Of a stretch of 64,000 bases of DNA, positions 32,906-40,981 are shown piece after piece. Location: positions 30,153 through 94,152 of the forward strand of contig JAZRJE010000016.1 of the NCBI GenBank assembly GCA_045645645.1. Reading direction: 5' to 3'. The notes beneath the pieces are model-generated. The model did not search any database. It had not been told where the DNA came from and saw only the letters and a list, made by a program, of their open reading frames with translations. Every line of letters starts with the position of its first letter. The stretch's first letter is position 1. This DNA comes from Candidatus Enterousia sp. (GTDB taxonomy: Bacteria > Pseudomonadota > Alphaproteobacteria > Rs-D84). Made by a program: the position numbers and the translations under genes.

Positions 32906-34750
32906 ATGTCAGAAAAGTTTGAGAAAATTGTTAATGCACCTCATCGTGCATTCGGACGCGCTAAAGATAAGTTGATACGTCAAAAATGGCCAGAAGATAC
33001 TAAGATGCGTGCTGGACATATGGCAAAAATTAGTGGGTTGGGGTTGGCTCAATTTATTTCTTGGGTAACTAAATATTTTGTGTTGGATAATCATTTGACG
33101 CGTAAATTAGAAGACTTATTTGCAAAGATTAGGGTGGTTGATAAAAATAATCAAGAGAAGCTGTGGCGTAAGTTTATAAAAAACAATCCAAATTTTGTTG
33201 GACACATAGTTTATTATATGATGATCGTATTGACTGCTGCTGGGGTGGATTTGTCAAAAGATGATAATCCTGTCCAGGAAACTGTTAAAGAGTGGACTGT
33301 GGATTCTAATGATGATGAAGAAAAAAAAGAAAATTCTATAAATTTATTTTACAAGGATTCAAGTATAAAAGATATTAATAATACAGTAGCTCATCTGAAT
33401 GCGATAAGTACAAATCAGCCACGTTCACAATTTGTTAAGCAGACGCTTGATGAATACTGGAATGAAATAGCAGTTGTTTTAACAGAGCTTGAAACATATC
33501 GAGCTGTACCAAAATTACAAGCTGGAGAATCTAGGTATACTAATGGTTTGGGATTGACCTGGTATTACTGGTATGATGATAAAGGAGTGTTGCACCAGCG
33601 AGCAAATCAGAAAAATAATACACCAAAACTGATAAAAAGTCAGGTTTATGAGCAAGTGCGAAGGCATTTAATAAAAGAAACATTGCCTGCATTATATAAT
33701 GCGATTAAAGATTATGATAATATTACGCCACAAATGAGAATTGCGTTGATAATGGTTGGGTATCAACGATCAACAGATATGAAGTATATTGCAAAAAAAT
33801 TGTCCGTAGCTAAGAACGTACAAGAGGTTGCAGATGCTTTTGCAGATGTGTCTAGTGTGCCAAAAAAATGGCGTCAAGGTACGTTAATTAGACGGTACAC
33901 TTGTGCGATGTATGCAATTGGGGCAATAAGTACAGAACAGTTCTTGGATTGGTCACGAGATTCTTTCTCAATGATAAACATTAATACTGTATATAAGAAT
34001 GGTCATTTTATTATTTCACAGGAAAATATCGAATATCTGTTGAGTCGTAGTAGATCATCTAATGATACTGTACGTGAATTTTTGTCTGATTTTGGTATGG
34101 GACATAAAATTGTAACAGATATAAAGTCTTTAAATAAAAAGTTTAATTTTGATAAAAATGCTAATGATTCTATATATGAAAAATCAATGGCTGTGGTAAA
34201 TAAAGCAGATAGAAAGTTTAAAAAAGCAAAATATAAAGAGGCAGAAAGATTGTATACTGAAGCCTTGGAATTAAACCCAGATAACATGGAAGCTTATAGT
34301 TCATTGGCTTTAACATATAAAAAGCTGGGCGATCAATATAAATCAGAGGAATATTATCAAAAGTGTATTAAGGTAGTGGTCGATTGTAATGGACGAATGA
34401 ATTCAAATAGAAATGTGTTACTGGATCATCGTGTTAAGGCAATGACTTACTATAATGCAGGATTGGCTCGTCAGGAAATTGGACATATCGCAAAAGAAAG
34501 TGGTGATTTTCAAAAAGCAAAAGAACAGTATCTGTTGGCGCAAAAGAATTTTAGAACAGCAAAAGAAAATGCAAAAATGGTGGATATGGATGTAGATATT
34601 CTTGAGCTTTATGAACATTCAATGGAAGGTATAAAGAAAAATATTGATGCTATTAAAAAGCTTGCTTTTGTCGAGTCTTCAATAAAGTTGAAAAATAAAT
34701 CTAGTATAATGGATTTATCAAAAATACATATTGATAAATATAAGGCATAG
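32906..34750 (+). CDS. Large hypothetical protein: N-terminal cytoplasmic segment, one TM, lysozyme-like (GH24-type pattern, tentative) central region, C-terminal TPR repeats
   Basis: Starts 1 nt after the mucR stop. TM at FVGHIVYYMMIVLTAAGV. The central region LTELETYRAVP...YTNGLGLT...ITPQMRIALIMVGYQ...GTLIRRYTCAMYAIG mirrors the phage-lysozyme pattern E..r..aY.d..G..T.G.G.T...aL.sf.yN.G...GL..RR..E. C-terminal TPR-like KYKEAERLYTEALELNPDNMEAYSSLALTYKKLGDQYKSEEYYQKCI. Confidence 0.5.
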   Translation: MSEKFEKIVNAPHRAFGRAKDKLIRQKWPEDTKMRAGHMAKISGLGLAQFISWVTKYFVLDNHLTRKLEDLFAKIRVVDKNNQEKLWRKFIKNNPNFVGHIVYYMMIVLTAAGVDLSKDDNPVQETVKEWTVDSNDDEEKKENSINLFYKDSSIKDINNTVAHLNAISTNQPRSQFVKQTLDEYWNEIAVVLTELETYRAVPKLQAGESRYTNGLGLTWYYWYDDKGVLHQRANQKNNTPKLIKSQVYEQVRRHLIKETLPALYNAIKDYDNITPQMRIALIMVGYQRSTDMKYIAKKLSVAKNVQEVADAFADVSSVPKKWRQGTLIRRYTCAMYAIGAISTEQFLDWSRDSFSMININTVYKNGHFIISQENIEYLLSRSRSSNDTVREFLSDFGMGHKIVTDIKSLNKKFNFDKNANDSIYEKSMAVVNKADRKFKKAKYKEAERLYTEALELNPDNMEAYSSLALTYKKLGDQYKSEEYYQKCIKVVVDCNGRMNSNRNVLLDHRVKAMTYYNAGLARQEIGHIAKESGDFQKAKEQYLLAQKNFRTAKENAKMVDMDVDILELYEHSMEGIKKNIDAIKKLAFVESSIKLKNKSSIMDLSKIHIDKYKA

Positions 34751-34783: not shown

Positions 34784-36811
34784 ATGAAAGTTTATGTTGA
34801 TATACATGATAGGCGATGGAAAAAGTATAAACTTGATTTTGAAAAAATTATATCGGCGTTGAATTTGCCCGAATATAATGAATCAGAAGTCTCGATTGTA
34901 TTGACGGATGATTCTGAAATTCATATGCTTAATCGCGAATATCGTGGTATTGATAAACCAACGAATGTTTTATCTTTTGAGCTGGGTGATGATATCTTGT
35001 TGGGGGATATTTATATATCAATCGATACAGTTGTGAAAGAAGCTAAATTAGCAAAGATATCAGTTGAAGAACACACTGCACATATGGTTGTGCATGGTGT
35101 GTTGCATTTGATGGGGTATGATCATTTGAATGACAGGCAGGCAAAAAAAATGGAAGCAAAAGAAATAAAAATATTGGATAAATTAGGAATAAAAAATCCA
35201 TATGAATCAGATGATGAGTTTGTTTGTTCTGACGCATCGTGTTGTCCAGGGGCCGGACTGTTTGCGTTTTTGAATAGACTGAAAATTCGTGAGGATGGAT
35301 TTTGGCAATATGCGCTGTACGCAGTATTTGGTGGGCTGGCTGCATTTGGGTTTGCTCCATTTAATATGTGGTGGTTAACAATTTTGTGTTTTATGGGGGC
35401 TTATTGGTTGACTGTTCGCGGAGCTAAAAAACTTGGTTTTTGGAGTGCTTTTTTACGTGTCCTACCTTTTGGCGCAATGTATGGTATTTCTATGTTTTGG
35501 TGGGTGCTTAATTCAATATATGTTGCGCCAGAATTAACAACACAGTATGCTTTTTGGACCGTTCCTGGATTGATTGGGTTGGGGGTTGCTGGTGCCTTTA
35601 TTTTTGGGATTCCTTTTGCTTTTTTGCGTTATGTTCGTATGTGTTCGGCTGCGCGTCCATTCTTTTTTGCGGGGATCTGGACATTCGTTTTGTGGTTGCG
35701 TGAATGGGTGTTTACAGGATTTCCATGGAATCCAATTGCAAATATTTCAATGCCATTCCCAATGCTGGTTAATTCAATGTCTTTGTGGGGGGCATTGGGA
35801 TTATCTTTTATAATTATTGGTTTTGTTGGAGCTGCTGTAGAAGTTTTGCGTAAATATCGCAGTCGTTCTACATTTGGAACGTTGCTTGTTTTTATTGTTT
35901 TGTTAGTGGTCGGTTTATTTGCAGGTTACGAAAATATGCAAAGATCAGATAGTGGGGCAAATATGAAGCCGCAAATGATTCGCGTTGTTCAGCCTGCATC
36001 TTCCCAGGAACAAAAGGCGACACATAACCGTGAACAGGCAATGAAAAATGCTGAAAAAAATTTACGTGATTTATTGTTCTTGGGGGTTGGAGATGCACGT
36101 GCGGATTTAGTAGTATATCCAGAAACATCATACCCATTTGTAATTGTTGAGGGTGATCAAATGCCATTAGCAACAGCTTTGGGAACAAATGTTGTTATTG
36201 GAGCCTCTACGTATAATCCTGCAGTTGGTGTTCAAAATTCTTTAGTTGTTGCAGATAAAAATGGCCAGATTTTAAGCGTATACAGCAAATCTCATCTGGT
36301 GCCTTTTGGTGAATATAGACCATTAGGATTTTTGCCAGGCCCAGTAAATTTAGTGCCAGGAGATGGACCAGAAATGGTTAGTTTAAATGTGTCTGGACGG
36401 GATTTTGTTTTTGTGCCAGCAATTTGTTATGAAATTATTTTTTCTGATTCTTTGGTACCATGTGCGGCAGGGTTGTCGGTGGATGCAATTATAAATATTA
36501 CAAATGATAACTGGTTTGGACGGACACCAGGCACATATCAGCATTTGGATATGGTTCGCAGATATGCAATAGAATCGGGGTTGCCGATTGTACGTGCAAA
36601 TTATTCAGGAATAAGTGCGTTCGTTGCGGCAGATGGTTCGATAATTGATAGCTTGCCCATTGGTGCGTCTGGGCATATTGATGGTTTTGTGTGGGGGGCA
36701 CATATGACACCATATCGTATGATTGGTATGAACTGGTGGATTATAATGATCTTAGCATTTGCAGGATTGTCTGCATTGGTCATGAATACGATTGATAAAA
36801 AAGAGAGATGA
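34784..36811 (+). CDS. In-frame fusion: rRNA maturation endoribonuclease YbeY (aa 1 to ~150) plus apolipoprotein N-acyltransferase Lnt (aa ~165-675)
   Basis: YbeY: IHMLNREYRGIDKPTNVLSF and the zinc motif HGVLHLMGYDH, ending ..LDKLGIKNPYE. With no stop or ATG it then continues into Lnt: multi-TM N-terminus, CN-hydrolase domain (DLVVYPETSYPF; SKSHLVPFGEY; VPAICYE), and a final TM. Confidence 0.8.
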   Translation: MKVYVDIHDRRWKKYKLDFEKIISALNLPEYNESEVSIVLTDDSEIHMLNREYRGIDKPTNVLSFELGDDILLGDIYISIDTVVKEAKLAKISVEEHTAHMVVHGVLHLMGYDHLNDRQAKKMEAKEIKILDKLGIKNPYESDDEFVCSDASCCPGAGLFAFLNRLKIREDGFWQYALYAVFGGLAAFGFAPFNMWWLTILCFMGAYWLTVRGAKKLGFWSAFLRVLPFGAMYGISMFWWVLNSIYVAPELTTQYAFWTVPGLIGLGVAGAFIFGIPFAFLRYVRMCSAARPFFFAGIWTFVLWLREWVFTGFPWNPIANISMPFPMLVNSMSLWGALGLSFIIIGFVGAAVEVLRKYRSRSTFGTLLVFIVLLVVGLFAGYENMQRSDSGANMKPQMIRVVQPASSQEQKATHNREQAMKNAEKNLRDLLFLGVGDARADLVVYPETSYPFVIVEGDQMPLATALGTNVVIGASTYNPAVGVQNSLVVADKNGQILSVYSKSHLVPFGEYRPLGFLPGPVNLVPGDGPEMVSLNVSGRDFVFVPAICYEIIFSDSLVPCAAGLSVDAIINITNDNWFGRTPGTYQHLDMVRRYAIESGLPIVRANYSGISAFVAADGSIIDSLPIGASGHIDGFVWGAHMTPYRMIGMNWWIIMILAFAGLSALVMNTIDKKER

Positions 36812-36816
36812 TAAAA

Positions 36817-37023
36817 TTAGTGTCGCATAACCTGATTTAAAATCCATACGCGAATCGCAGATGATAGATTTTGGTCAGGTTTGCGTGTGTTATCTATTTC
36901 GCATATAATTGATGCAACTGACATATTGCGACCATCTGCGATGCGTTTTAATATTTCCAGAAATTCTGGTTCTAAGGTAATGCTGGTTTGGTGACCTGAT
37001 AAAGATACAGATATTTTTTTCAT
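36817..37023 (-). CDS. Ribbon-helix-helix protein (RHH_4/PF13467-like)
   Basis: KKISVSLSGHQTSITLEPEFLEILKRIADGRNMSVASIICEIDNTRKP.QNLSSAIRVWIL matches the pattern S.rl.GH.TSisLE..FW..L..iA...g.S...Li..ID......NLSSAlRvfvL. ATG 37023 lies 5 nt after the upstream stop; alternative ATG at 37053. Confidence 0.6.
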   Translation of the reverse strand: MKKISVSLSGHQTSITLEPEFLEILKRIADGRNMSVASIICEIDNTRKPDQNLSSAIRVWILNQVMRH

Positions 37024-37028
37024 GTGAT

Positions 37029-37463
37029 TTAATATTTCCCTGCTATTAAGCAATCAGTCATTGCCCGATATGGGTTGTCATATTTTCGCAGTATGCGCAG
37101 TGATAAATTGTCCAGCATATAACATGTCCCAAATGCATCAAATGCAAACCAAAACAGGTCGTTGCGACCAAATACCGTTTTACCAACTGTTCCAGGCAGG
37201 CCAGATATATCACGATTTATTTCCAATATACTGGGAACTGGGTTTCGTGGCCCGTTTTCAATTTCTTTTGGTCCAAATATATATCCAGAATCCAGTGATA
37301 TCCCGCCACAGTTTGTATAAAAATCCGTCATGAATGCAGGTAATATTGCTGCACGTAGATGTTGAAGATTGGAATTTGTTTGTCTTATTTCTGAATCAGT
37401 TGCACGTGGTGCAATTTTTGCACCGCGTGCAGATATAGCTGATAAAAATTCTTTGCTATTCAT
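37029..37463 (-). CDS. SUKH-1 / SMI1-KNR4 family-like protein (immunity-protein fold)
   Basis: SEIRQTNSNLQHLRAAILPAFMTDFYTNCGGISL..GYIFGP and C-terminal FWFAFDAFGTCYMLD match the SUKH hallmark (ie.aE..lg..LP..y..fl...NGg......l; f.fa.dg.Gn.y.lD). Confidence 0.55.
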   Translation of the reverse strand: MNSKEFLSAISARGAKIAPRATDSEIRQTNSNLQHLRAAILPAFMTDFYTNCGGISLDSGYIFGPKEIENGPRNPVPSILEINRDISGLPGTVGKTVFGRNDLFWFAFDAFGTCYMLDNLSLRILRKYDNPYRAMTDCLIAGKY

Positions 37464-37477
37464 CTTTTTTTGCTTTT

Positions 37478-37978
37478 TTATTCCCGCCCATCTGCCAGTT
37501 GTGCTGCCATTTGGGCCAGTCGGTCTTCGGTTGCGTTGCCACCGTCACCACCACCAGCGGTGTGTGCAGGCAGATATATCTTTTTTGCTGGGCTTGGTAA
37601 CCAAATTGTTTCTGCGTCGTTTTGCATAATTATAAATTGATCTAATTTTTGGCTGTATGGAAACGTCCAGCACATAAACATATTGTCCACTTCAAGTTTC
37701 CCGCCCCATGTTAGAGGAACACGAAGTCGGAATGATATGTTATTTGGTATATTGTGGCCCATAAGAAGGGCCATAAACTCATCTTGGCTAAGGTTCATGA
37801 ATGCCAGTTCTTGTACCGAATCAGTCAGATATGATGTAAATGTATGACACAGTTGTTTATATTGTTTGAACCAATCTGGTGATAGGCTGGTTGGGGTGGG
37901 GTGAATTTCAATTACTGGCATGTCACTCATCCCCATGTCAGACAGTATCTTTTCTGCCATTGATTGGTTTAGTTGCAT
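37478..37978 (-). CDS. Hypothetical protein with degenerate colicin-type HNH-like core (tentative) and Gly-rich acidic tail
   Basis: 166 aa. SD AGGGAA lies 7 nt upstream of the ATG. Its start overlaps the upstream stop (TAATG). SFRLRVPLTWGGKLEVDNMFMCWTFP resembles HH..P[IL]S..GG.....DN[IM]....P, with the His positions replaced. Confidence 0.5.
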   Translation of the reverse strand: MQLNQSMAEKILSDMGMSDMPVIEIHPTPTSLSPDWFKQYKQLCHTFTSYLTDSVQELAFMNLSQDEFMALLMGHNIPNNISFRLRVPLTWGGKLEVDNMFMCWTFPYSQKLDQFIIMQNDAETIWLPSPAKKIYLPAHTAGGGDGGNATEDRLAQMAAQLADGRE

Positions 37979-38880
37979 TACAGTTTCCCTATGTAGTCAA
38001 TGACGGTTGATATGTATTCTGAATATGCATCAAAATTACCATCGTCATCCGCTGTTAATGGCGGATTTGTGTGTTCCTTCATATAATCACGTACAGATTG
38101 CAGTGTGTCAAATATTAATATGTCTGATGTGTGCGAATCTGCGACGTCTGTTGCATGCAGGATAAATGGTATAACGTGTATTTCAACGTCATCTAGTGTG
38201 TCAGAAAATATTTGGGTTAATTTGCTTACACAAGAATGCATTTGCTGGGTTGAAATGCCCGTCGCCCCAAGGTATAAAATCTCGTCAGTGCCGATTGCTA
38301 GTACTGACATTTGGATTCCATTGATGCGCGGTTCTTTCTTTATAATGTAGTGGGCAAGAGAAAATATTTCGCGCAACTTTTCGTTATCTTGGGTATGTAA
38401 TGTTTGTTGTGCAGGTTGCGTTGTTTGTGTGTATGATGCGTTTACAACTGCTGTGTTTTGTGCGGGCGCAAATGTATTTGATGGCGCAATATTTAAACGT
38501 GGTGGACGTATAAGCGTGGGTGTTTCTATCTTTGGTTGTTCAAAGGCAGGTGTTTGTATCGGTTGTGAAACTTGCTGTTGGGATACAGGTGTCGGCGGTG
38601 TTGATTTCGTAATGTTTTTTTTAGATGGTCTAATCTTACGAAAACGAGGACGTATCAGTAAGTACAGACCAAATAGCGTTATAATTGTTGCGGCAACAAA
38701 TGAAAAATAAAACCAAAAACTGATTGGGGTACGTGTTGCCTGTTGCATGGCAAGATATTCCCAATGTGTACTTGAAAACAGGTTAAATCCGAATCGGGTG
38801 TTAAACCAAAAGCAGGTTCCTAATGTTGCACCAAGCAACCAAAGTACGCCAAGTAATATATTTTCAATCTTTCTGTTCAT
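37978..38880 (-). CDS. Hypothetical membrane protein (2 TM, Q/P/T-rich linker, unknown C-terminal domain)
   Basis: ATG 38880 (MNRKIENILLGVLWLLGATLGTCFWF...) is preferred over the track start 39012. Second TM at FWFYFSFVAATIITLFGLYLLI. Low-complexity segment TPPTPVSQQQVSQPIQTPAFEQPKIETPTLIRPP. C-terminal ~130 aa are globular. Confidence 0.55.
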   Translation of the reverse strand: MNRKIENILLGVLWLLGATLGTCFWFNTRFGFNLFSSTHWEYLAMQQATRTPISFWFYFSFVAATIITLFGLYLLIRPRFRKIRPSKKNITKSTPPTPVSQQQVSQPIQTPAFEQPKIETPTLIRPPRLNIAPSNTFAPAQNTAVVNASYTQTTQPAQQTLHTQDNEKLREIFSLAHYIIKKEPRINGIQMSVLAIGTDEILYLGATGISTQQMHSCVSKLTQIFSDTLDDVEIHVIPFILHATDVADSHTSDILIFDTLQSVRDYMKEHTNPPLTADDDGNFDAYSEYISTVIDYIGKL

Positions 38881-38890
38881 TATGATTTTT

Positions 38891-38913
38891 ATTGTATCAT
38901 ATTTATGATAAAC
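38891..38913. promoter_or_regulatory. Back-to-back divergent extended -10 elements (TGATACAAT on the minus strand, TGATAAACT on the plus strand)
   Basis: Minus strand: TGATACAAT (38899..38891), 10 nt from ATG 38880. Plus strand: TGATAAACT (38905..38913), 11 nt from ATG 38925. Neither gene has an SD. Confidence 0.4.
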
Positions 38914-38924
38914 TAAAAAGTGTA

Positions 38925-39599
38925 ATGATAGATTTAAATTCTTTTTTTTCTGATATTGATGGGCATGCTGGTGTATGGTGTGGTGTAGATACAAAAGGTG
39001 CAGATTTAGCACGGATGGTTGAATTTATAACAGAACAAAAAATTCACGATTTATCTGTGTTGCCAGAAGTTGTCCCTGTTGTTTGGCCATGGTTGGAAAA
39101 AATTGATGTTAATATCTTGGGACGTTTTTATTTGGGTGATGATACCATTAATACAGATGTGATTTCTGATTTGACTGTGCAGATAAATAAGTCTTTTAAG
39201 CATGGTGCAAATGGTGCAATGGTTTTTGTGCGGTATAAAAATCTGCATGATATGGTGGCACAGGTAGCGTTCGTACGTGATGATTTGTTCTTTAATCGCG
39301 AGTTAATTATTGGTGTCGATATTGGGGATATCGATTCGAATCAATGGGGTGATTTGTTCGAAAACCTAAGGCGGATAAATGCATCGGCGGTAATGTTTGC
39401 ATTGACAAAGGATATGGGTAAAAAATCGGACTTTGTGGGGCGGGTGTATGGGATGCTGAACGCGTGGGATGCTGAATTTAACGGGACATTGCATTTTGCG
39501 TTGGGCAACAGCGCAGAACGAATCGACCAGGCGCAAAGATTGGTTGCATCAATGCGGCCCGATTTGATGTCTGGATTGCGAATTTGGGTAAATTATTAA
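38925..39599 (+). CDS. Hypothetical protein (possible aldolase-type TIM-barrel layout, very tentative)
   Basis: 224 aa from ATG 38925. IDGHAGVWCGVDTKGADLARMVEFITEQKIHDLSVLPEVVPVVWPWL..IDVNILGRFYLG loosely resembles the DeoC-family N-terminal beta/alpha pattern. No confident family assignment. Confidence 0.4.
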   Translation: MIDLNSFFSDIDGHAGVWCGVDTKGADLARMVEFITEQKIHDLSVLPEVVPVVWPWLEKIDVNILGRFYLGDDTINTDVISDLTVQINKSFKHGANGAMVFVRYKNLHDMVAQVAFVRDDLFFNRELIIGVDIGDIDSNQWGDLFENLRRINASAVMFALTKDMGKKSDFVGRVYGMLNAWDAEFNGTLHFALGNSAERIDQAQRLVASMRPDLMSGLRIWVNY

Positions 39600-40219
39600 G
39601 CGTTTTTTAAGATTAAATATTTTGGGGCATCTGTGCCGGCCTTGTTTTTATGCTGATAACGCGTTTGAATAATTTCCATGTCTGGAATTGTTGCAACCAG
39701 GGATGTTGATTTTATTTGTTCCAATATCCAATCAAAATATTCCCAATGATCTGTGCCGATTATTATTTCGCCATTTGTGGATAAAAACTTTGATAATAAA
39801 TTTAAGAATTCAGCGGACAGTAATCGGCGTTTTTCATGTCTGGCCTTGGGCCAGGGGTCGGGGTGTAAGACCCAGATTTGTTCGAATTTTGAATCTGTTT
39901 CGCGCAAAAAATCCCGCACATCATCAGGCCAAATGCGAATACCAGAATATTCATCCAAAATCCGATTCGATTTTTCATCGGTTATTGCGGACAGCAAAGA
40001 TGCAACACCGTTCATAAATGGTTCGGCGCCGATTATGATTTTATCCGGGTTATTGCGTGCCAGGTCGCGCACATGTTCGCCCGCACCAAAGCCAATTTCA
40101 AGTATGTCGCCCGTTGTTGGTTTTATGGTTGGTAAAACCGTGTCAATCAGTGTTGATTGACGGGTGGATAATTTTTTGCCGTGACGGCGTCCAAATGTTC
40201 TTATTTCTTGTGTTTCCAT
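39596..40219 (-). CDS. trmB: tRNA (guanine46-N7)-methyltransferase TrmB
   Basis: FGRRHGKKLSTRQ, LEIGFGAGEH (SAM motif), IIGAEPF.NGVA, VLHPDPWPKARHEKRRL. ATG 40219; an upstream GTG at 40252 is possible. Confidence 0.85.
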   Translation of the reverse strand: METQEIRTFGRRHGKKLSTRQSTLIDTVLPTIKPTTGDILEIGFGAGEHVRDLARNNPDKIIIGAEPFMNGVASLLSAITDEKSNRILDEYSGIRIWPDDVRDFLRETDSKFEQIWVLHPDPWPKARHEKRRLLSAEFLNLLSKFLSTNGEIIIGTDHWEYFDWILEQIKSTSLVATIPDMEIIQTRYQHKNKAGTDAPKYLILKNA

Positions 40220-40267
40220 AGTTTTAGTATAGAATTGAGTTTTGTAAAACACAAGGAATATATAGAT

Positions 40268-40981
40268 ATGGCCGAGTATCCAGAAGTTATTAGTCTAATA
40301 GACAGTGGTTGGAATGATACAGAACCCGTTTACTGTGTTCGTGGTGATTTTAGTGGGGGAATGTATAAGCCAATAGGGGCTAATCAGATGATTGCCAACG
40401 AATTGTATGGTGCCATAAATGCGAACCGTGATTTTTTTAGACCGTGGTTGCCATGGGTTGATTCTGTGAAAAGTCCGGCAGATGAAATGCCAATTGTGGA
40501 ATCATTGGCCGACAGAACGACATGTAAATATTATCTGCGACTGAACGGGTGGTTGACGGGCGTGGTTGGCGTTGTTCGTGAAGATAAAAATACCGGGACG
40601 ATGGAAATAGGATATTGGCATGATCCACGATATAATGGTCATGGGGTTATGACGTGGGCCGTGGGCAAGGCTGAAATGTTATGTTTTTTGTATGGTGATG
40701 CGAAAAAAGTGGAAATTCGTTGTGCCACAGAAAATAAGCGCTCGCGTCGGATTCCAGAACGTTTGGGGTACAGACAAGAATGTATTTTACCGGCGGCGGA
40801 AAAAATGCCGTCGGGTGTGGTTCATGATATTGTTGTGTATTCTAAAACATTGTCCGAATGGCTAGAGAGACCAACGGGATTACAAAATGTGGTTTGGATT
40901 TGGCCCCCGAAAAGTTATCTTTATCAATGGGAAAAGTATCACAAATTGAAATCAGAATGGGAAAAAGGGAAACAAAAATGA
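40268..40981 (+). CDS. GNAT family N-acetyltransferase (RimJ/RimL-like) with ~40-aa C-terminal extension
   Basis: IGYWHDPRYNGHGVMTWAVGKAEMLCF...VEIRCATENKRSRRIPERLGYRQE. Its TGA overlaps the gltX ATG (ATGA at 40978). Confidence 0.7.
   Translation: MAEYPEVISLIDSGWNDTEPVYCVRGDFSGGMYKPIGANQMIANELYGAINANRDFFRPWLPWVDSVKSPADEMPIVESLADRTTCKYYLRLNGWLTGVVGVVREDKNTGTMEIGYWHDPRYNGHGVMTWAVGKAEMLCFLYGDAKKVEIRCATENKRSRRIPERLGYRQECILPAAEKMPSGVVHDIVVYSKTLSEWLERPTGLQNVVWIWPPKSYLYQWEKYHKLKSEWEKGKQK

Follow-up and report, generated by a model that had tools for sequence, protein, structure and literature searches.

A core gene cluster of Candidatus Enterousia encoding a YhhZ-type HNH domain without its catalytic histidines and a YrhA-like partner: a possible exapted toxin-immunity cassette

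In a 64-kb stretch of DNA from Candidatus Enterousia sp. (contig JAZRJE010000016.1; this whole stretch is hereafter the window, with positions numbered from its first letter), four open reading frames (ORFs) are tightly packed on the minus strand in the order g1-g2-g3-g4, and a fifth gene on the plus strand, div, diverges from g1 across a 44-nt spacer (Table 1). The genes g1 and g2 overlap by 1 nt in a TAATG sequence, and gaps of 14 and 5 nt separate g2 from g3 and g3 from g4, respectively. This arrangement had been described in an initial annotation made from the letters alone, and we could confirm the coordinates and junctions that it gave as well as the presence in the ORFs of all the peptide motifs that it quoted. 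The possibility of chance ORFs is ruled out by the hundreds of full-length homologues that the genes possess: 436 were found for g2, 730 for g3 and 260 for g1, nearly all of them full length, and they come from gut metagenome-assembled genomes (MAGs) labelled 'Alphaproteobacteria bacterium' or Candidatus Enterousia. In a scan of one genome per GTDB species, g2 is encoded by 196 species representatives, that is, by at least 196 species-level genomes of one lineage; the best 80 of these 196 were taken for locus comparison, giving 85 related loci in total. The 1-nt TAATG-type overlap is kept in 66 of about 79 loci, which suggests that translation of g1 and g2 is coupled.

Table 1. Features of the cluster in the window and of related loci elsewhere (T4SS, type IV secretion system; T4CP, T4SS coupling protein; TM, transmembrane; RHH, ribbon-helix-helix)
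Feature	Coordinates	Strand	Description
g1	37978..38880	-	300 aa from the ATG at 38880; two-TM inner-membrane protein (predicted)
g2	37478..37978	-	166 aa; predicted cytoplasmic; YhhZ-type HNH (His-Me finger) homologue by sequence, active site replaced
g3	37029..37463	-	144 aa; predicted cytoplasmic; remote YrhA-family relative
g4	36817..37023	-	68 aa from the ATG at 37023; RHH_4 ribbon-helix-helix DNA-binding protein
Divergent control region	38881..38924	.	44 nt; putative promoter and operator roles, from sequence
div	38925..39599	+	224 aa; conserved orphan protein
T4CP-linked loci	L090 5145-11719; L091 3332-9527; L098 3-4945; L099 1149-7477; L100 1-1741		Uncultured Alphaproteobacteria
Plasmid HNH endonuclease and YrhA pair	L097 4359-5936 (NZ_CP031568.1); L096 3377-4930 (NZ_CP107078.1)		IncHI-type transfer region, adjoining trhG/trhH

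The protein encoded by g2 has no match in Pfam, NCBIfam, PADLOC or PHROGs; member-by-member Pfam scans of its superfamily gave nothing useful, and nothing significant was found when its profile was compared with PDB sequences. The superfamily is small, since an exhaustive profile search gave only 73 representative clusters. A signature typical of His-Me fingers, VH(L/I)K-P-x-E-Y-G-G-x5-N-L-x-L-I-x-T-H-P-(Y/F)-H-x-x-I-H, is seen in its distant members, and alignment of the superfamily profile (A3) with residues 253-385 of Escherichia coli K-12 YhhZ by hhalign gave a probability of 98.6% (E=5e-16) over 130 columns. YhhZ, which we take to be a member of the experimentally tested Hcp-ET1 class, has an Hcp domain at its N-terminus and is matched weakly by Pfam HNH at residues 322-343. 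It has been classed among the His-Me finger polymorphic-toxin proteins, the YhhZ-type nucleases being group 32 of that classification (PMC5714182), and a review describes an Hcp-fused 'HNH-DNase' class, YhhZ not being named, that degrades target DNA and for which cognate immunity proteins exist (PMC6099711). A hidden Markov model (HMM) built only from the g2 proteins of this lineage matches the 'HNH endonuclease' of an IncHI conjugative plasmid (26.9 bits, residues 220-349) and also that of a Kosakonia plasmid; because the local HMM runs used very small target sets, bit scores are quoted for them rather than E-values. The AlphaFold2 model of g2, with a predicted local distance difference test score (pLDDT) of 85.8, shows a core of two β-strands (81-85 and 100-104) and an α-helix (105-118) as expected for a His-Me finger, and in Foldseek searches of PDB and BFVD, HNH proteins dominate the matches, Cas8-HNH and phage HNH proteins ranking first, but only at E>=0.09. 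From the profile comparisons, g2 is to be regarded as a homologue of the YhhZ-type HNH (His-Me finger) toxin domain. The colicin and pyocin DNases, with which the initial annotation had aligned g2 by eye, were rejected as its closest relatives, the YhhZ-type HNH being much closer.

The same annotation had considered the catalytic histidines of this domain to be replaced, and both the alignment to YhhZ and the residue counts from 83 distinct g2 sequences of this lineage bear this out. In place of the general-base His that ends β1, the window has Arg84, and the residue is Arg in 82 of the 83 sequences and Lys in the remaining one. The metal-binding His of the α-helix (P-Y/F-H) corresponds to Ser109 (Ser in 79, Ala in three and Gly in one), and a third His of the alphaproteobacterial relatives is Asp throughout (83/83), whereas the structural Asn, Asn99 in the window, is kept in all 83. 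A His does occupy the position neighbouring the metal-binding one in 53/83 sequences, where the window has Tyr. By contrast, the relatives of g2 (motif VH..PYH) and the enterobacterial proteins retain His. The C-terminal tail GGxGGNxTxDR is present in 78/83 sequences, and a reduced form, G-GG-x4-DR, is common to the distant relatives. We infer that g2 no longer cuts DNA, and a working DNase toxin is unlikely because the active site has been lost.

The product of g3 matches the NCBIfam model of the YrhA family, NF038335, with an E-value of 1.7e-7 over profile positions 12-137 of 150, and the model matches all 32 g3 homologues tested (best E=2e-8); for comparison, E. coli K-12 YrhA scores 82 bits. 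Since the score of g3 lies under the curated cut-off, we consider it a remote relative of the YrhA family rather than a member. A broad g3 HMM, to which distant alphaproteobacterial homologues had been added, matches three enterobacterial YrhA proteins at 15-20 bits, whereas the narrow g3 HMM gave no significant match to these three proteins and hhalign of the narrow profile against a single K-12 YrhA fragment found no alignment support; the link between g3 and YrhA thus rests on the NCBIfam model and the broadened profile. The gene order agrees with this link: a g3-like gene lies directly after every g2-like gene examined, also in E. coli, where yrhA overlaps the end of yhhZ, and on plasmids. 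In K-12 itself, yrhA (locus L086, 7039-8310) is split by IS1E directly after yhhZ according to the RefSeq annotation, and its two fragments together cover the whole NF038335 model. The initial annotation had seen in g3 a SUKH (SMI1/KNR4-like) protein. While the motifs LP..(F/Y)...GG and hydrophobic-D are visible by eye, Pfam SMI1_KNR4 matches weakly, at E=0.051 and in one of 32 sequences, and the only PDB match of the g3 profile is 2ICG (Lin2918), presumably a SUKH structure, at a non-significant E=0.42; in the literature, nothing relevant was found on YrhA together with SUKH. Hence g3 may have a SUKH fold, which is only weakly indicated; it is related to the YrhA family, whose members are encoded right after HNH toxins and are the putative immunity partners of YhhZ-type HNH nucleases. 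As judged from sequence, g2 and g3 descend from a pair made up of a YhhZ-type HNH DNase toxin domain and a YrhA-family partner.

In g1, hydrophobic segments at residues 8-26 and 58-76 bear out the two N-terminal TM helices that had been described for this protein, and the Q/P/T-rich linker described with them is also present. Because eight Lys/Arg residues follow the TM segments, ahead of the T/P/Q-rich linker, the C-terminal domain should be cytoplasmic by the positive-inside rule. The TM hairpin encloses a conserved loop, FGFNxFSxxHWxY, predicted to be periplasmic, and the linker contains a conserved RPPRL motif; no hydrophobic segments were found in g2, g3, g4 or div. Scans of Pfam, NCBIfam, PADLOC and PHROGs gave no match to g1, and its profile found nothing significant among PDB sequences. 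The AlphaFold2 model of residues 160-300 (pLDDT 88.6) has the predicted fold α-β-β-β-α-β, and its Foldseek matches in PDB are almost exclusively PD-(D/E)XK nucleases, none at E<=0.001. The top match is the restriction-like endonuclease (RLE) domain of R2 (probability 0.99, E=6.9e-3), followed by Cdn1, NucS/EndoMS, Bax1, Card1, Cap4, cap-snatching endonucleases and type II restriction enzymes. Pfam NERD touches one of 31 g1 homologues (E=0.016), and longer homologues have a NERD-like W...SPV insert. The catalytic D...(D/E)xK is absent from g1: the window reads GIQMSVLAIGTDEILYLGAT, with no Asp ending β2 and no (D/E)xK on β3, and in the sequences of distant homologues only the first Asp is kept. 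The C-terminal domain of g1 (about residues 165-300) is accordingly modelled as a catalytically degenerate PD-(D/E)XK/NERD-like domain with a restriction-endonuclease-like fold.

The assignment of g4 to RHH_4 proved correct, its score against Pfam PF13467 (77.7 bits, E=6.9e-22) being well above the gathering cut-off of 25, with residues 2-64 aligned to profile positions 2-66 of 67; a literature search on PF13467 returned nothing relevant. In the spacer between g1 and div, the back-to-back mirrored extended -10 elements reported in the initial annotation are present as described: 10 nt separate the end of the TGn-extended -10 box TGATACAAT from the g1 ATG downstream, and the same distance lies between the end of its mirror image, the likewise TGn-extended TGATAAACT, and the ATG of div at 38925. 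Together, the boxes form the palindrome TATCAT-N4-ATGATA (38895..38910). The spacer measures 42-44 nt in 71/80 loci, with a nearly invariant sequence, and its 22-mer TTTATCAYAAATATGATAYAAT, for which shuffles give an expectation of 0 matches, is found exactly in 53/85 loci, as a single copy per locus and also as a single one in the window. A scan for sigma-70 -35/-10 promoters gave nothing at the spacer, because both promoters are without a -35 box. From the position of the -10 boxes, 9-10 nt from the start codons, the leaders would be very short or absent. We infer that the palindromic element serves as promoter pair and candidate RHH_4 operator, and g4 is the presumed repressor of the two divergent promoters. 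The div protein has no match in Pfam, NCBIfam, PADLOC or PHROGs, none for its members scanned singly in Pfam and none for its profile among PDB sequences. It is adjacent and divergent in 82/85 loci and so belongs to the conserved unit in this lineage. Invariant residues (K, D, D and R), together with hydrophobic positions that alternate along the chain, hint that div may be an enzyme.

A general feature of the cluster is its stability. By tblastn, the order and orientation g1-g2-g3-g4 is kept in 85/85 related loci, g4 being found in 84 with a contig end accounting for the missing case; trmB/gltX lies on one side in 75-79 of the loci and ybeY::lnt on the other in 78. Even in a distant 'Rickettsiales bacterium' MAG, with a g2 of 39% identity, all five genes are kept and adjoin ybeY::lnt. 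The GC content of the cluster (0.38-0.41) shows no anomaly relative to the flanks (0.38-0.43), and amino-acid identity across the 80 species is as high for g2 (56-84%) as for YbeY-Lnt (49-79%). The median ratio of nonsynonymous to synonymous substitution rates (dN/dS), from eight independent close pairs, is 0.056 for g2, 0.077 for g3, 0.088 for g4, 0.148 for g1 and 0.161 for div. All five genes are therefore under strong purifying selection, g2 being the most constrained. The idea of an orphan accessory insertion between lnt and trmB, put forward in the initial annotation, is not supported: comparison of this interval across relatives did reveal co-occurrence of the four genes, but not accessory status, and recent horizontal gene transfer was rejected on synteny, GC content and dN/dS. 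The cluster rather appears, from these comparisons, to be a vertically inherited core unit of Candidatus Enterousia/Rs-D84-type genomes. Genomes of Candidatus Enterousia (order Rs-D84) measure 0.75-1.0 Mb (PMC12306168), and that same study is also the source of the MAG behind one of our loci (L018, isolate KS320-82). Since the cluster has been retained under such constraint in genomes of about 900 genes, it presumably does something useful.

Such stability has a direct bearing on whether the cluster could be an active toxin-immunity or addiction module, in which the toxicity of g2, through tight binding to DNA or some non-canonical chemistry, would be neutralised by g3, with g4 as autoregulator of the operon; such a module would persist as its loss kills the cell. 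Addiction could account for retention in small genomes, the ancestry of g2 and g3 as HNH toxin and YrhA partner is real as far as sequence tells, and toxin-antitoxin (TA) operons typically show both an RHH regulator and tight coupling. Nevertheless, the catalytic and metal-binding histidines are replaced in every g2 sequence counted, and it is g2, the would-be poison, that evolves most slowly, strong purifying selection being the opposite of what is seen in a fast-evolving conflict cassette. Polymorphic toxins are variable, patchy, mobile and fast-evolving; here position and order are fixed across the lineage and dN/dS is 0.06-0.16, unlike in mobile, patchy TA and polymorphic-toxin loci. Nor does g2 have an N-terminal trafficking domain, and no T4CP, Hcp, Rhs or VgrG was found in the window (tblastn) or in the 85 loci. 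The window proteins gave no match in scans for TA families and with PADLOC, and the architecture differs from that of type II TA systems with an RHH antitoxin, which have two genes and whose RHH protein neutralises the toxin itself, in having four co-oriented genes, with the RHH_4 protein separate and devoid of an extra domain. Nor does TA logic include a conserved partner in the membrane or a divergently oriented partner gene. We therefore consider an active module unlikely. The toxin/immunity resemblance noticed at the outset thus holds as true common descent of g2 and g3, and probably not as an active conflict module, given the lost active site and the strong constraint.

Outside the lineage, relatives occur in two architectures. 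The first, RHH-linked, is that of the window and comprises a g1-like gene, a short g2-like gene without the catalytic His, a g3-like gene and RHH_4; it recurs in L092/L093 and in L094/L095, where the chromosomal neighbourhoods differ and where, in L092, a div homologue lies 3 kb away. The second is T4CP-linked: one or two g1-like genes precede the gene for a VirD4/TraG-type coupling protein, which is followed by those for a long g2-like protein and a g3-like (YrhA-like) protein of 143-151 aa. The long g2-like protein has MWDWS at its N-terminus, contains a P/Q-rich region and retains the catalytic His. Of the loci with this architecture (Table 1), L100 is cut by a contig end within the upstream ORF, which corresponds to the C-terminus of the T4CP; two TrbL/VirB6-like genes lie nearby in L090, and L099 has no further T4SS gene within 6 kb. 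A bare g2-like/g3-like pair was also found (L088). When a T4CP-linked relative was used as tblastn query, 458 plasmid records, of which 433 are typed as conjugative, proved to contain the nuclease domain; on these, RefSeq labels the genes 'HNH endonuclease' followed by 'YrhA family protein'. In this small sample, the g2 proteins without the catalytic His (this lineage, L092 and L094) are those encoded with RHH_4 and without a T4CP, while the His is present in all five T4CP-linked loci. On this sequence evidence, the g1-g2-g3 triad is an evolutionary unit that extends beyond this lineage and links the two architectures. It is possible, if doubtful, that an ancient triad lost its nuclease chemistry and its coupling protein and was then exapted to an indispensable core function in genomes of less than 1 Mb, such as DNA or nucleoid handling tethered to the membrane or a regulatory complex under RHH_4 control; an interbacterial weapon would then have been domesticated and turned to housekeeping.

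The existence of T4CP-linked relatives raises two other explanations. One is that the cluster is an orphan-immunity island, in which g3 would protect against the His-containing T4CP-linked HNH effectors of competitors and the disarmed g2 would act as scaffold, chaperone or decoy. Immunity genes of this orphan type are known from other effector families, and relatives that are catalytically intact by sequence do adjoin T4SS coupling proteins in related gut Alphaproteobacteria, each with its own g3-like gene. Immunity proteins engaged in an arms race usually diversify, however, whereas g3 has a low dN/dS (see above) and 37 invariant columns, and g2 is more conserved than g3, beyond the need of a mere scaffold; since g1, div and the fixed position would in addition be left unexplained, we regard orphan immunity as improbable. 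The other is that the module is linked to secretion, g2 being a non-catalytic effector exported through its GGxGGNxTxDR...GR tail by a T4SS encoded elsewhere, with g3 as chaperone or immunity protein and g1 as membrane adaptor. The reduced tail motif is shared by g2 and the T4CP-linked relatives, in whose loci g1-like genes flank the T4CP, and the genome-reduced Rs-D84 bacteria have been proposed to depend on other cells (PMC12306168). Against this, neither a T4CP nor other T4SS genes were found in the 64-kb window (tblastn) or within ±8 kb of the 85 loci, and all RHH-linked cassettes examined are without a T4CP. A secretion-linked module therefore seems very improbable. The remaining weight would go to some explanation that we have not considered.

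The reading that we prefer, tentatively and with a confidence that stops a little short of even, is that the cluster is an exapted, non-nucleolytic toxin-immunity cassette, membrane-tethered, RHH-autoregulated and with a housekeeping-type role. The former active-site face of g2 would have been kept as a nucleic-acid-binding or partner-binding surface, and g2, g3 and the tethered domain of g1 would form a cytoplasmic complex at the inner membrane, which fits with the translational coupling of g1 and g2. Through the conserved palindrome, g4 would repress both divergent, probably leaderless, promoters, and the module would be functionally tied to div while no longer being a DNase weapon or an addiction system. 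Our leading guess as to its cellular role is DNA or nucleoid handling at the membrane, or regulation. Several points weigh against the exaptation that we propose. Loss of the canonical His is not proof of lost catalysis or toxicity: the invariant Arg and Asp could allow other chemistry, and Tyr-substituted His-Me nucleases exist (PMC5714182). The Foldseek matches of the g1 and g2 models are both weak, none reaching E<=0.001, and the YrhA score of g3, 31.2 bits, lies under the cut-off of 55 bits. Physical interaction of g1, g2 and g3 is suggested by gene linkage and coupling only, the term 'core' derives from MAGs and from counting cluster-bearing genomes, and there is no positive evidence for a specific cellular function, everything resting on MAG sequences.

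Toxin-immunity cassettes are usually seen as selfish, mobile and fast-evolving, whereas here one appears disarmed, fixed at one site and under housekeeping-level constraint, and this in some of the smallest gut-bacterial genomes, where dispensable genes get lost. Confirmation would provide a clear case of exaptation of a nuclease weapon, define four unannotated protein families (g1, g2, g3 and div, none of which is in Pfam) and a conserved regulatory element, and draw attention to an uncharacterised module of uncultured Alphaproteobacteria that has a T4SS coupling protein at its centre. The cluster also gives a handle on the biology of Candidatus Enterousia/Rs-D84.

The neighbourhood of the cluster in the window deserves some comments of its own. 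The ORF at 34784-36811 (+) encodes a single 675-aa protein in which the rRNA-maturation RNase YbeY (PF02130) is fused to the apolipoprotein N-acyltransferase Lnt (LNT_N and CN_hydrolase); the fusion is also called in L001-L005 (596-670 aa) and is therefore lineage-wide and not an assembly artefact. Upstream of it, at 32906-34750 (+), lies a gene for a 614-aa protein with TPR repeats at its C-terminal end, whose homologues in L001-L004 have a faint Phage_lysozyme match and are adjoined by a Ros/MucR regulator gene. On the other side, the longest ORF of a GNAT-type acetyltransferase (40181-40981, +, from GTG 40181) overlaps the 5′ end of trmB (39596-40252, -) by ~70 nt on opposite strands; its true start is probably further downstream, because the version in relatives is called at 185 aa.

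The components of the cluster are of known kinds, namely a His-Me finger toxin domain, a YrhA-type partner, a NERD-like fold and an RHH protein. What we have not seen described is the combination of a disarmed toxin-immunity pair with a membrane NERD-like protein and RHH_4, nor such a unit as a core operon in genomes of less than 1 Mb, with a sister architecture built on a T4SS coupling protein. A likeness of the C-terminal domain of g1 to NERD and other PD-(D/E)XK domains is suggested by the Foldseek matches of its predicted fold, by the Pfam NERD touch in one homologue and by the W...SPV insert of the longer homologues, but the domain is without D...(D/E)xK and is fused by a long low-complexity linker to a two-TM anchor. 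The X-Tfe/X-Tfi pairs of the bacteria-killing T4SS of Xanthomonas and Stenotrophomonas resemble only the His-containing relatives, in which an effector-like gene and a small partner directly follow virD4/T4CP; these relatives are without XVIPCD, and the cassette of the window lacks a T4CP and has lost its active site. For the fate of g2, the Smad MH1 and ENPP nuclease-like domains, inactive His-Me finger scaffolds that have retained binding functions (PMC5714182), may serve by analogy as a mechanistic model of a scaffold kept after His loss, although these eukaryotic domains show no sequence relationship to g2 and did not arise from a toxin-immunity pair.

Related to g2 and g3 is the pair of the IncHI plasmids, for instance pSHV12-1301491, where it adjoins trhG/trhH. 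Its likeness lies in a direct match to the g2 HMM and a YrhA-family gene downstream, and linkage to conjugation and T4SS is something that it shares with the alphaproteobacterial T4CP-linked relatives. The plasmid-borne proteins differ from g2 in keeping VHHK...PYH and in having a 220-aa N-terminal extension, and the pair is without a g1-like or RHH_4 partner. Finally, YhhZ-YrhA of E. coli, an HNH nuclease fused to Hcp (of the T6SS 'Hcp-ET, HNH-DNase' kind) with its YrhA-family neighbour, displays the same gene order, a nuclease domain followed by a small partner of about 145-165 aa, and its two proteins correspond to those of the window in that g2 aligns with the C-terminal HNH of YhhZ and g3 matches the YrhA model. 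In contrast to YhhZ, g2 has neither Hcp nor another trafficking domain, and its catalytic and metal-binding histidines are replaced. The cluster of the window is further enlarged by genes for a membrane NERD-like protein and RHH_4 and by a divergent partner, and it is chromosomally fixed and conserved rather than variable.

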